4,330 nt of DNA from a virus (IMGVR_UViG_2663763282_000003:1-4330), one strand, 5' to 3'; positions 490-4,330 are shown, counted from the first letter of the stretch. The notes: a model not told the origin generated them from the letters alone. Made by a program: numbers and translations.

Positions 490-654
490 ATGAGAGGACT
501 TGCATACAACCCCGGCATTCTTCCGGCAGAAATGATTATTCGCCAACGCGTAAAGCCAATGCCATCGAGAGAGGAATTGCTTAAGAGAAATTCTTTTCCA
601 TCAGTGAATCAAAACAAGTATCTGAATGCGATGTTGCGGAGTGGGAAGAAATGA
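490..654 (+). CDS. small hypothetical protein (54 aa, basic), possibly translationally coupled
   Basis: ATG at 490 with GAGG at 478-481 (8-nt spacer); stop TGA 652-654 overlaps the ATG at 651 of the next gene (ATGA). It is the distal part of the 340..654 frame in the ORF track; the upstream part of that frame overlaps the better-supported 186-479 gene. Confidence 0.3.
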
Positions 655-1133
655 AACAAATGACACTAATTGAGATGGATGGTTTTCTGAAAGGTAAATG
701 CATCCCACGAGATTTAAAGGTTAACGAAACAAACGCTGAATATCTTGTGCGTAAGTTCGGTGAACTTGAATCAAAACTAGAAACGGCGTTGCGGGAGTGT
801 CGTTCTGCTGGAATCACGATTGATAACCTTGAGGCTAAATGCGCGAAGATGGCTGCTGAAAATACCTCACTTAAGCAATCTGAGAAGGAATTTAATGACT
901 TTTGTCGTGAGGAGTTTAGCGAATGGGAAGATGATGTTACTGAAACTCCAGCCACCGATGCTTTCCTGGCTGAAGTACGGGCGCAGGGGGTAGAGATGTA
1001 CGCAGATAACCTCGACAACGGAGCAGACGACGCAGAACGAGGTGGTTTTGATTATGCCGTTAAGTTTCTACGCAGTGAAGCATCTAGTGTACGTTTGTTC
1101 GCCGACCAGCTTCGCAAAGGAGGCAACCAGTGA
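651..1133 (+). CDS. hypothetical acidic coiled-coil protein (160 aa)
   Basis: ATG at 651 with GGAG at 638-641; stop TGA 1131-1133 overlaps the GTG start of the next gene (GTGA). Translation has a heptad-like central segment ([43 protein letters not shown]) and an acidic C-terminal half; hand count about 33 D/E versus 22 K/R. Confidence 0.6.
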
Positions 1134-2026
1134 GCAAGATTGACTATCAGGCACTGCGTGAGGCGGCAGAAAAAGCAACGTGTGGTGAGTGGTCGCTCGA
1201 ATATGGAGAGGGCCAATTTGATGGTGATGATGCGCTAATTCATCGTGACGTTGTTGGATATCTTCCCATTTGCAGAATTGAAGGAGCGCATCCTGAAAGC
1301 GGTTTCGATGAAGATTTCCAAATAGAACAGCAGGCCAATGCTGAATTCATCGCCGCAGCCAATCCAGCTACCGTCTTGGCGCTGCTGGATGAGCTGGAAA
1401 GAAACCAGCAATACATCAAACGCCGTGACCAGGAGAACGAGGAGATTGCGTTAACGGTAGGGAAGCTGCGTGTTGAGCTGGAAGGCAAAGACAAGCTGAT
1501 TGCAGAGCTTGGAAAACAATGCGCCGAATGGGAGCGAAAAGCATTAAGCAACTTTGAAGAGTGTGCTGCGATGGCTGAACGTATCGAAGAGTTGCAGACA
1601 AAATCTGCACCAGATTCGTTTGGCATCATCGGTGAAAATATTCGAACACAGGATAATCGAATAACGTCAGACCCTATGTTTTGTGTGTATCAAAAGCGCG
1701 AAATCGTTGTTGATGCTGATTATGACTATGACCGGATTGTCTGGGTTGATGAAGATGGCAATGAAGCCAATAAACGCCAAAGTCGTCGTCTCGAACTACT
1801 TCACGAAAACTTTCGAGAGCCACCAGAAAAATGGCGGCGCGTTGCTGTGAAAGATATTGATGAATTCGTTACCTGCTGTTTCACCGAACAGGGTTGTAAA
1901 GACTACCTGGCAGCCAATGGTCACAATCTTCGCTTGCCATTTATATATGTAAATGGCGGTTTCAGGAACGCTGAATATATCGGCATAAGAAACTGGCTTG
2001 CTGGCATTCGCATCAAAGGAGAGTGA
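1130..2026 (+). CDS. Ead/Ea22-like family protein (298 aa): conserved N-terminal module, central coiled coil, long C-terminal domain of unknown function
   Basis: GTG at 1130 preceded by a strong AGGAGG at 1118-1123 (6-nt spacer). N-terminus [21 protein letters not shown] resembles the conserved N-terminal signature of lambdoid Ead/Ea22 proteins as recalled from memory. Central region (about aa 85-150) is coiled-coil-like. Position upstream of an Ea8.5-like gene, xis and int mirrors the lambda ea22-ea8.5-xis-int order. Confidence 0.75.
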   Translation: MSKIDYQALREAAEKATCGEWSLEYGEGQFDGDDALIHRDVVGYLPICRIEGAHPESGFDEDFQIEQQANAEFIAAANPATVLALLDELERNQQYIKRRDQENEEIALTVGKLRVELEGKDKLIAELGKQCAEWERKALSNFEECAAMAERIEELQTKSAPDSFGIIGENIRTQDNRITSDPMFCVYQKREIVVDADYDYDRIVWVDEDGNEANKRQSRRLELLHENFREPPEKWRRVAVKDIDEFVTCCFTEQGCKDYLAANGHNLRLPFIYVNGGFRNAEYIGIRNWLAGIRIKGE

Positions 2027-2598: not shown

Positions 2599-2766
2599 AT
2601 GCACTTCCGAGTTACAGGTGAATGGAATGGAGAACCATTCAACAGAGTTATCGAAGCCGAGAACATCAGCGACTGCTATGACCACTGGATGCTGTGGGCG
2701 CAGATAGCACATGCAGACGTAACCAATATTCGAATTGAAGAACTGAAAGAACACCAAGCCGCCTGA
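2599..2766 (+). CDS. small hypothetical protein (55 aa)
   Basis: ATG at 2599 with GGAG at 2588-2591 (7-nt spacer); open frame MHFRVTGEWNGEPFNRVIEAENISDCYDHWMLWAQIAHADVTNIRIEELKEHQAA to TGA 2764-2766. Below the length cutoff of the supplied ORF track. Stop codon lies in the loop of the next terminator hairpin. Confidence 0.4.
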   Translation: MHFRVTGEWNGEPFNRVIEAENISDCYDHWMLWAQIAHADVTNIRIEELKEHQAA

Positions 2767-2780
2767 TGGCGGTTTTTTAT
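2756..2780 (+). terminator. intrinsic terminator-like hairpin
   Basis: Stem CCGCC (2759-2763) / GGCGG (2768-2772), loop TGAT (2764-2767), extendable by flanking A-U and G-U pairs, followed by six T (2773-2778). Confidence 0.6.
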
Positions 2781-2792
2781 TGGAGACAAGAA

Positions 2793-3137
2793 ATGTCAGA
2801 TTTGGCTATGAAGGTTTTGAAATGGCAATCGACTGGCGATGTCGGCATCAGTAGCGCAACTCTTGCCTCAATCGCATGTGGACTGAAAAAGAATATCTAT
2901 GGTCATCACTTCGGCGCTCCACATGACGCAGCCGATTTCAGACGATGCGTTGCACTTGTTGAGCAGATCCCAGAAATCAGAGATTCATTCGACAAGGTTG
3001 CAAAGCGCGTTCCGGCATTCAAAGGCATCCTCAACGAATGGGATTCCCTCGTTGATCTGTTGAAGTCTGAAATGAAGATACACGGAAACAAAGCACCAGA
3101 GACTTACAGAAGAATTAGCGAGTTACGCAAGGACTAA
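2793..3137 (+). CDS. hypothetical protein (114 aa), function unknown, immediately upstream of xis
   Basis: ATG at 2793 with GGAGA at 2782-2786 (7-nt spacer). The in-frame ATG at 2766 used by the ORF track lies inside the upstream terminator hairpin and has no Shine-Dalgarno. Stop TAA 3135-3137. No family recognised. Confidence 0.6.
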   Translation: MSDLAMKVLKWQSTGDVGISSATLASIACGLKKNIYGHHFGAPHDAADFRRCVALVEQIPEIRDSFDKVAKRVPAFKGILNEWDSLVDLLKSEMKIHGNKAPETYRRISELRKD

Positions 3138-3227: not shown

Positions 3228-3575
3228 GTGGAAGAAGAAATCTTCACTCGTGAAGAGGCAGCGTCGTATCTGAAGGTAGACAAAGGCACTATCACGCAGT
3301 GGATACGAAGTGGACGACTTCAGGCCGCAAAGATAAATCCAGATAAACCTAAAAGCCCATATCGCATTTGCAAGTCAGACTGCATTGCGGCGCTTAAGTC
3401 TGTGAGACACAATAGCGCGGTGAATGCGGTTGATGTGCAGGAGGTTAAAGCATGTCAATCAAACTACGCGGTGGCACGTGGCACTGCGATTTCGTCGCGC
3501 CAGATGGATCAAGAGTTAGACGCTCTCTTGAAACATCGGACAAAAGGCAAGCGCAAGAACTTCACGATCGTCTGA
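3228..3575 (+). CDS. xis: excisionase (Xis; P22-type excisionase/DNA-binding protein), 115 aa
   Basis: GTG at 3228 with GGAG at 3217-3220 (7-nt spacer). Small basic protein with an N-terminal HTH-like segment (FTREEAASYLKVDKGTITQWIRSGRLQAA). Sits directly upstream of and overlapping the integrase gene, as in P22-type int-xis modules. Confidence 0.75.
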   Translation: MEEEIFTREEAASYLKVDKGTITQWIRSGRLQAAKINPDKPKSPYRICKSDCIAALKSVRHNSAVNAVDVQEVKACQSNYAVARGTAISSRQMDQELDALLKHRTKGKRKNFTIV

Positions 3576-4330
3576 AAGCAGAAGCGTGGAGAGTAAAAAA
3601 TCTCGGGGAATCACCGAAAAAGCTATTCAAGGAAGCCTGCATACGGTGGCTGCGTGAGAAATCGGATAAGAAGTCCATTGATGATGACAAGAGCATTATA
3701 TCGTTCTGGATGTTGCACTTCAGAGAAGCCATTCTCTCTGACATAACAACAGAAAAAATAATGGAGGCGGTAGACGGGATGGAAAACCGCCGCCATCGCC
3801 TGAACTGGGAGATGAGCCGGGACAGGTGTTTGCGACTTGGCAATCCGGTGCCGGAGTATAAACCAAAGCTTGCAAGCAAAGGAACGAAGACGAGGCATCT
3901 GGCAATACTTCGCGCCATTCTCAATATGGCTGTTGAATGGGGATGGCTTGACAGGGCACCCAAAATATCAACACCACGCGTTAAGAATGGACGCATCAGA
4001 TGGCTTACAGAGGAGGAATCGAAGCGCCTGTTTGCAGAAATTGCTCCTCACTTCTTCCCTGTGGTCATGTTTGCAATCACGACAGGCCTTCGCCGTTCCA
4101 ACGTTACAGACCTTGAGTGGTCACAGGTCGATCTGGATAAGAAAATGGCATGGATGCACCCTGATGAAACAAAAGCTGGCAATGCGATCGGAGTTCCTCT
4201 TAACGAAACCGCATGCCAGATATTAAGAAAACAGCAGGGGCTCCATAAGAGATGGGTATTTGTCCACACCAAACCTGCCTACCGAAGCGACGGAACAAAA
4301 ACAGCAGCGGTAAGGAAGATGAGAACCGAC
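3452..4330 (+). CDS. int: phage tyrosine integrase (site-specific recombinase, P22-type), 3'-partial: N-terminal 293 codons in window
   Basis: ATG at 3452 preceded by AGGAGG at 3439-3444 (7-nt spacer). Frame stays open to the last base of the window (879 nt, no stop). Translation MSIKLRGGTWHCDFVAPDGSRVRRSLETSDKRQAQELHDRLKAEAWRV... has an arm-binding-type N-terminus and the box I motif region TTGLRRSN containing the first catalytic Arg. Downstream catalytic residues would lie beyond the window. Confidence 0.9.
   Translation, partial: MSIKLRGGTWHCDFVAPDGSRVRRSLETSDKRQAQELHDRLKAEAWRVKNLGESPKKLFKEACIRWLREKSDKKSIDDDKSIISFWMLHFREAILSDITTEKIMEAVDGMENRRHRLNWEMSRDRCLRLGNPVPEYKPKLASKGTKTRHLAILRAILNMAVEWGWLDRAPKISTPRVKNGRIRWLTEEESKRLFAEIAPHFFPVVMFAITTGLRRSNVTDLEWSQVDLDKKMAWMHPDETKAGNAIGVPLNETACQILRKQQGLHKRWVFVHTKPAYRSDGTKTAAVRKMRTD

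Follow-up and report, generated by a model that had tools for sequence, protein, structure and literature searches.

Ea22 is encoded by the largest gene of the exo-xis (early-left) region of lambdoid phages, and this region influences the lysis-lysogeny decision and, therefore, the release of Shiga toxin (Stx) in enterohaemorrhagic Escherichia coli (EHEC). According to the literature, the ea22 deletions made in phages lambda and Phi24B indicate that Ea22 favours lysogeny (PMC7093339), and the ea22 gene of phage P27 is transcribed very highly early (PMC10834534, PMC7093339). The full-length Ea22 proteins of P27 and lambda were reported to be tetrameric, and the C-terminal regions studied to be dimeric and acidic (PMC10834534). 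Another early protein, gp27 of phage HK446 (Oad2), has been described as directly inhibiting the abortive-infection nuclease P2 OLD; P22 EaE is a relative of Oad2, fusions of Oad2 to EaD/Ea22 proteins occur in some cases, and the Oad2/Ea22 locus has been termed an anti-defence hotspot (bioRxiv 10.64898/2026.07.10.737580). Here, an Ea22-like gene located at positions 1130..2026 of the viral DNA stretch IMGVR_UViG_2663763282_000003:1-4330 (4,330 nucleotides, hereafter referred to as the window) was analysed computationally and compared with these systems. The product of this gene is an Ea22 "variant 3" (V3) lambdoid early protein, whose identity and modular anatomy (head, stalk and C-terminal domain (CTD)) are well supported. 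The gene and its parts, with lengths in amino acids (aa), are the following:

1130..2026, + strand: Ea22-like gene of the Ea22 variant-3 type, 298 aa, GTG start; an identical protein is found on CP012140.1
1117..1122, + strand: Shine-Dalgarno sequence AGGAGG within the 3' end of the upstream gene, read directly from the sequence (...caaAGGAGGcaaccaGTGagc)
1130..1360, + strand: N-terminal head, aa 1-77, with conserved helix IDYQALRE, a three-stranded insert and helix NAEFIAAANP..., inside the PF13935 match
1364..1600, + strand: central long helix or coiled-coil stalk, aa 79-157, helical in the AlphaFold2 (AF2) model and covered by Ead_Ea22 to aa 147
1601..2023, + strand: CTD, aa 158-298 (Ea22_V3 CTD = PHROG 3205), phrog_3205 match, alpha/beta order a-b-b-a-b-a-b-a
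2000..2026, + strand: mosaic joint comprising the last 8 codons (AGIRIKGE) and the stop codon, containing AAGGAG, from DNA alignment with lambda

The open reading frame (ORF), which had been proposed in a first-pass annotation made from the sequence alone, is present as described there: it runs from 1130 to 2026 on the + strand, encodes 298 aa starting from GTG, and contains the peptides that were quoted. The AGGAGG sequence lies 6 nt 5' of the GTG start codon, and the start codon overlaps the stop codon of the upstream ORF in the sequence GTGA, which suggests translational coupling of the two genes. No sigma-70-like promoter site was found ahead of the Ea22-like gene. Within the assembly collection, 97 blocks carry the identical 298-aa protein, and near-identical architectures are annotated in P27, POCJ13 and HK022. 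The ORF is thus a real gene, and proteins of this kind are labelled "ead/Ea22-like family protein" by the NCBI pipeline.

Membership of the Ead/Ea22 family, as claimed in the first-pass annotation, is borne out by a match to Pfam PF13935 (Ead_Ea22) at aa 2-147 (E = 1.2e-32; 113.9 bits versus a cut-off of 27). The layout characteristic of the family, in which a long central coiled-coil helix comes after an N-terminal helix, is found as helix 6-15 and a single helix at 79-157, and the C-terminus (...AGIRIKGE) carries the terminal R/K-G-E tripeptide of the family. A tblastn search of phage genomes with aa 156-298 returned 90 records, 87 of which were at least 95% identical. The latter include phages HK022, POCJ13, 75/02 Stx, VT1-Sakai, P27, PA8, PA28, phi272, 1717 and 2851, as well as many Stx2a and Stx1a phages; these matching phages were classed by Goddard et al. 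2024 (PMC10834534) as "Ea22 variant 3", with P27 Ea22 as the prototype. The CTD is 96-97% identical to those of P27 Ea22, HK022 p35 and POCJ13 gp76, with overall identities of 80% to P27 Ea22, 92% to POCJ13 gp76 and 83% to HK022 p35, and the alignment with the P27 Ea22 CTD covers 143 of 143 residues at ~97% identity. The N-terminal segment of about 63 additional residues that distinguishes variant 3 from lambda Ea22 is also present, although its sequence type is that of POCJ13 and differs from that of P27. As all of the testable traits of the Ead/Ea22 family and of variant 3 were found, the protein is of an already known kind, and the gene belongs, as an ordinary and annotated member, to a published type.

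When the profile searches were split by domain, as had been advised in the first-pass annotation, the N-terminal part matched Ead_Ea22, whereas the last ~140 residues gave no Pfam match even at E ≤ 10 and the CTD no meaningful NCBIfam match. The CTD had no match in PADLOC either, a library that covers defence rather than anti-defence proteins, and the CTD family profile had none in a sequence search of the PDB. In a single-sequence PDB search 2ipq (STY4665/TraI_2_C) came up at E = 0.37; it was lost when the family profile was used and in both fold searches. On the other hand, phrog_3205 (function label: unknown) matches aa 145-297 with an E-value of 9.1e-52, and all 78 of the 78 diverse representatives of the CTD family match PHROG 3205. 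Thus, the description of this domain as unrecognised holds for curated domain libraries and fails otherwise, since it is the published CTD of Ea22 variant 3 (PMC10834534, PMC7093339) and is included in PHROG 3205. The predicted difference from lambda Ea22 stands. The lambda Ea22 CTD cannot be aligned with this domain except for the final 8 residues (AGIRIKGE), no likeness to residues 102-182 of lambda Ea22 (PDB 8DSX) was detected, and 8DSX is absent from the match lists of both CTD fold searches. Neither of the findings named beforehand as fatal to the proposal, a CTD equal to that of lambda Ea22 or to a well-characterised domain, or a missing Ead/Ea22 profile match, was made.

A HMMER search with the CTD alone detected 1,458 cluster representatives (50% identity) at E ≤ 1e-3, 806 of them at E ≤ 1e-10. 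From a deep alignment of 63 diverse CTD copies (43-57% identical to the query), the AF2 model of the domain alone had a mean predicted local distance difference test (pLDDT) score of 94.3 and a predicted template modelling (pTM) score of 0.81, with the elements, in domain numbering, alpha(7-18)-beta(27-39)-beta(47-52)-alpha(60-71)-beta(80-95)-alpha(98-111)-beta(116-121)-alpha(126-136). In a full-length AF2 model based on the shallow alignment of 39 close full-length homologues, the pLDDT of the CTD was only ~40-50. The AlphaFold and ESMFold predictions for the V3 CTD have been reported to be discordant (PMC10834534), and this discordance is probably due to the effect of shallow versus deep alignments on the CTD model. 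Foldseek comparison of the CTD model with 350,542 PDB chains yielded no match at E ≤ 0.001, with the best TM-score of 0.22, and the significant matches in BFVD were to uncharacterised phage proteins only, including those of Fusobacterium phage Fnu1 and Bacillus phage pW4 (13-17% identity). As judged from the predicted model, the CTD has a fold with no solved relative.

In the 63-sequence alignment, about 22 CTD positions are at least 90% conserved, and most of these are polar. Residues conserved in more than 85% of the sequences are Q174, N176, R177, T179, P182, F184, V186, K189, W205, L221, R237, F246, V247, T248, C250, F251, T252, E253, G255, C256, G264, H265, N266, L267, P270, R279, N280, E282 and R287, and they form the motifs TQDNRxTxxPxFxV, FVTxCFTEQGC, GHNL..P and RNxE....R. 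The family members are mildly acidic (median pI, 5.2). Reading these motifs as those of a PD-(D/E)xK nuclease or of a papain-like Cys-His enzyme was considered and rejected, as neither had fold support and the Cys residues are dispensable in some members.

The full-length AF2 model, a monomer prediction, served solely to delimit the head and the stalk. According to this model, the head is composed of elements H6-15, E20-24, E34-39, E44-50 and H61-76, and the stalk is one unbroken helix (79-157; pLDDT, 93-97). Alignments show that the stalk can be matched to those of lambda and P27, that it falls short of the P27 and POCJ13 stalks by 18 residues, and that the head insert (alignment with lambda, P27 and POCJ13) is missing from lambda Ea22. 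Between the first helix and the NAEFIAA helix, this insert (1178-1324, aa ~17-65) is hypervariable among the IMG/VR loci L007-L086: in 79 IMG/VR viral contigs, 48 N-terminal sequences of at least nine unrelated head types precede a ~97% identical CTD. The N-terminus is therefore not simply conserved, as had been assumed in the first-pass annotation, but holds a hypervariable insert, a pattern that points to a second recognition surface undergoing diversifying exchange. The helical scaffold on which head insert and CTD alike are swapped is conserved.

The proposal that the CTD is a swapped module is well founded. Besides being joined to at least nine head types, the domain occurs behind a different N-terminus in HK022, and as a stand-alone protein of ~150 aa in Aeromonas phage phiARM81mr (p12) and in the jumbo Tunturiibacter phage Tunturi_5 (gp126). 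Among 149 representatives, the CTD was C-terminal in 91, alone in 29, N-terminal in 16 and in the middle of the protein in 13. The partners recognisable by Pfam were few: DUF551 (3), Ead_Ea22 (2), dATP/dGTP pyrophosphohydrolase (1), DUF3850 (1) and Lar (1). With at least 1,458 clusters at 50% identity, the family extends from Proteobacteria to Actinobacteria, Planctomycetes and an archaeal metagenome-assembled genome (MAG), its reach including Marinobacter, Azospirillum, Francisella, Micromonospora, Planctomycetes, Dependentiae and a Methanosarcinales MAG. Distant members lie in early, recombination or integrase regions of phages, where small co-directional ORFs form arrays with integrases, RdgC, YqaJ, DUF551, dUTPase and Bro-N; a gp5.9-like RecBCD inhibitor is present in one of these neighbourhoods, and some carry dUTPase, thymidylate kinase and PAPS-reductase genes. 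No constant partner gene was found in the neighbourhoods of 15 distant CTD loci. The CTD is an autonomous, freely swapped phage module.

The genes and other features surrounding the Ea22-like gene in the window are listed below:

186-479, + strand: abc2 anti-RecBCD gene of the P22 Abc2 family (Pfam PF11043, E = 5.8e-63; phrog_656)
651..1133, + strand: upstream ORF, 160 aa, Oad2/EaE family (phrog_614); its TGA overlaps the GTG of the Ea22-like gene
2229-2510, + strand: ea8.5 homologue (Pfam Lambda_ea8_5, E = 1.1e-48), DNA virtually identical to lambda ea8.5
2528-2549: terminator-like hairpin after ea8.5, conserved with lambda
2599-2766, + strand: 55-aa ORF (phrog_676)
2756-2775: G+C-rich hairpin with a T-run, spanning the stop/start junction of the 55-aa and 123-aa ORFs
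2766-3137, + strand: 123-aa ORF (phrog_1229), called as 114 aa on CP012140.1
3228-3575, + strand: excisionase (HTH_17, phrog_2907), overlapping the integrase start
3452-4330, + strand: tyrosine integrase, running off the window end

The product of ORF 651..1133 is 54% identical to HK446 gp27, i.e., Oad2 (E = 5e-59), and 91% identical to its HK75 homologue (HK75_28), which was reported to be unable to inhibit OLD (bioRxiv 10.64898/2026.07.10.737580). The Ea22-like protein itself showed no relationship to HK446 gp27 (BLASTP E = 1.8), so that only the upstream ORF belongs to the Oad2/EaE family. V3-type domains are, however, repeatedly joined to Oad2-family pieces: they stand behind an Oad2 N-terminus in HK022 p35 and in proteins P0024 and P0002, behind an Oad2 middle region in the Hafnia proteins P0110 and P0115, and ahead of a C-terminal segment beginning with ETPATDAFL... 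in P0183, P0181 and P0185. This recurrent joining provides circumstantial support for a CTD acting in the same arena as these inhibitors. The peptide ETPATDA(F/Y/L)L recurs at the junctions of the V3-type domain with other modules (P0183, P0181, P0185, P0110, P0170) and occurs in Oad2 as well; its appearance is that of a linker or a recombination boundary common to many mosaic proteins of the early region.

In the prophage on CP012140.1 (GCA_001579965.1), the gene order is cI/cro - erf - abc2 - DUF2737 - 160-aa ORF - Ea22-like - ea8.5 - 55-aa ORF - 114-aa ORF - xis - int, followed by host proA/proB-type genes. The Ea22-like gene therefore lies where Ead/Ea22 genes typically do, within the early-left operon, after the recombination genes and ahead of xis/int, and the locus corresponds to the classical pL (early-left) accessory region of a lambdoid or P22-like prophage. 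The proA/proB-type genes after the CP012140.1 integrase fit phages that integrate at thrW, and the attP of HK446 is annotated as thrW-like. By size and position only, the 55-aa ORF at 2599-2766 is a candidate counterpart of lambda orf55.

From the last 8 codons of the Ea22-like gene through ea8.5 (2000-2560), the DNA of the window is ~99% identical to that of lambda. Since the lambda-identical DNA starts inside these codons, the terminal R/KGE tail, called "of unknown significance" in the Ea22 literature, sits on a mosaic recombination joint. The AAGGAG sequence at the joint has an equivalent in P27 that is annotated as the ribosome-binding site of the next gene. Just past the stop codon (2029-2052, + strand), an insertion of 11 nt, as compared with lambda, gives rise to an ATG and to a mini-ORF of 7 codons, MSRNTGL*, which begins 7 nt 3' of AAGGAG and may be the remnant of a deleted, translationally coupled downstream gene.

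As for function, the Ea22-like protein is, in our opinion and by a small preponderance of probability, an oligomeric stalk that displays a target-binding CTD early in infection. The degrees of confidence attached to this reading and to its rivals overlap and are not meant to sum to one. By analogy with the tetramer measured for the 80%-identical P27 protein, the stalk would oligomerise the protein and thereby display several copies of the CTD, which would be the working end. The invariant polar surface of the domain, as deduced from sequence conservation, might bind a conserved component of the host or of host defence, or a small ligand, early in infection, with Q174, N176, R177, T179, T248, T252, E253, H265, N266, R279, N280, E282 and R287 as putative contact residues. 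Two outcomes can be envisaged from related systems: a shift to lysogeny and host survival, as reported for the Ea22 proteins of lambda and Phi24B, or the neutralisation of a defence, or of a host function linked to recombination, in the manner of the abc2 and Oad2-type genes nearby. The high early expression of P27 ea22 favours a stoichiometric binder.

Several points weigh against the target-binding interpretation. The pro-lysogenic phenotypes come from lambda, which has its own CTD, and from Phi24B, whose CTD is of the DUF551 type, and because the tested phages carry other CTDs, the phenotype is not simply transferable to V3. For the same reason, the "effector or sensor" role suggested in the first-pass annotation goes beyond what these phenotypes bear out, and is conjectural. 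In addition, published two-hybrid screens yielded no Ea22 partner, the many invariant polar residues could equally fit a catalytic site, and oligomerisation of the window protein, with a stalk that is 18 residues shorter, is assumed from homology.

Among the alternatives, an anti-defence role survives best, though it is considered no better than a tentative possibility. According to this explanation, the CTD would be an inhibitor or decoy acting against a host immunity system triggered by phage recombination or RecBCD inhibition, with a role comparable to that of the Oad2-type protein encoded next to it, and the Ea22 scaffold would be its oligomerising carrier. The position of the gene between abc2 (anti-RecBCD) and xis and its coupling to an Oad2-family ORF point in this direction, as do the hotspot and the Oad2-EaD/Ea22 fusions described in the preprint (bioRxiv 10.64898/2026.07.10.737580), the recurrent fusion of the CTD to Oad2-family segments, Lar restriction alleviation and DUF551, the gp5.9-like RecBCD inhibitor in one distant neighbourhood, the mild acidity of the family and the very high early expression of P27 ea22. 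However, the CTD has no sequence relation to Oad2 and no match in PADLOC (which covers defence rather than anti-defence proteins), the fusion partners are mosaic modules that may merely share recombination linkers, and the published Ea22 phenotype is pro-lysogenic rather than anti-defence. A broader version is offered more speculatively and is rather unlikely: that the V3 CTD founds a large uncurated phage family and serves as a portable inhibitor or decoy of a conserved component of host immunity or recombination surveillance, exchanged between Ea22-type and Oad2-type oligomeric carriers in the anti-defence hotspot.

An enzymatic role of the CTD, with the invariant polar residues as the active site and a nucleotide, nucleic acid or protein side chain as the substrate, is improbable. 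It would account for the invariant or near-invariant residues Q, N, R, T, T, T, E, H, N, R, N, E and R at an overall identity of only ~45-55%, and it is consistent with the fusion of one member to dATP/dGTP pyrophosphohydrolase and with the dUTPase, thymidylate kinase and PAPS-reductase genes found in some neighbourhoods.

Very improbable is the explanation suggested by the CC-x5-C cluster, to which the first-pass annotation had drawn attention, namely that the CTD is a sensor with a metal (Zn or Fe-S) or redox-sensing cluster. The pattern is indeed present, as C249-C250-x5-C256, in the window protein and in enterobacterial copies, H265 is 95% conserved, and a link of Ea22 to induction by oxidative stress has been speculated upon in the literature. 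Nevertheless, among the 63 diverse members, C249 is replaced by Ala in 56, C250 is Cys in 59 (replaced in 4), and position 256 has Cys in 55 and Ala in 8, and the members lacking Cys retain all of the other CTD motifs. The three to four family-wide ligands expected of a Cys-cluster domain are thus not present: at most two Cys and one His are left, located on a strand end and on both ends of one helix, an arrangement other than that of a canonical 4-ligand site. This variation makes CC-x5-C a trait of the enterobacterial copies and a canonical metal cluster unlikely.

That the long ORF is an annotation or assembly artefact in which two genes are joined by a frameshift can be regarded as effectively refuted: although the CTD is encoded by a gene of its own in certain phages, an in-frame stop lies immediately 5' of it in six IMG/VR loci, and a split ea22 has been described for 933W (another variant), the same fusion is found in P27, POCJ13, HK022 and many prophages, the identical 298-aa protein occurs in 97 assembly blocks, and P27 Ea22 was purified as a full-length tetramer (PMC10834534).

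What the present analysis adds to the published type is the size of the CTD family and its spread across phyla, its fusions, including those with Oad2/EaE pieces, and the finding that CC-x5-C is not conserved as a metal site. The V3 CTD is common to many Stx2a, Stx1a and other Stx-converting phages, and lacks a curated domain model or an agreed structure. Its role has become more testable through a confident fold model (obtained with the deep domain-level alignment only), a list of invariant residues and a recurrent fusion to the Oad2 family in an anti-defence hotspot. The remaining interest, which is moderate, lies in the role of a phage domain that is very widespread and lacks a solved structural relative.

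When compared with the known systems, the CTD is included in PHROG 3205, which is a cluster label only. Oad2 (HK446 gp27) occupies the same hotspot, and both proteins look like a helical N-terminal part followed by a variable specificity region, but the Ea22-like protein has no sequence similarity to it, the relative of Oad2 in the window being the upstream ORF. HK022 p35 (NP_037688) has the same distal stalk and a 97% identical CTD; its first ~40 residues, however, are of the Oad2/EaE type, like window ORF 651-1133, and not an Ead/Ea22 head. Lambda Ea22 (NP_040612; CTD, PDB 8DSX) shares the N-terminal helix, the first part of the coiled coil and the last 8 residues, and its gene occupies the same slot 5' of ea8.5 with near-identical downstream DNA, whereas it has no head insert, and its CTD is neither alignable nor among the structural matches. 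Ea22 of the Stx-converting phage vB_EcoS_P27 (ANJ65579.1; PMC10834534, Dydecka et al. 2020 PMC7093339) has the same Ead_Ea22 scaffold, coiled-coil stalk, CTD, IKGE end and early-left slot. It differs in the sequence type of the head insert (aa ~17-65) and in the 18 additional residues of its stalk, and it is followed by other ORFs, while a lambda-type ea8.5 comes next in the window. The closest full-length phage relative is gp76 of Shigella phage POCJ13, or the Ea22-like protein of phage 75/02 Stx, which at 92% identity has the same head type and CTD; POCJ13 differs from the window in its longer, P27-type stalk, in DUF4752 upstream and in a DUF551 protein downstream.

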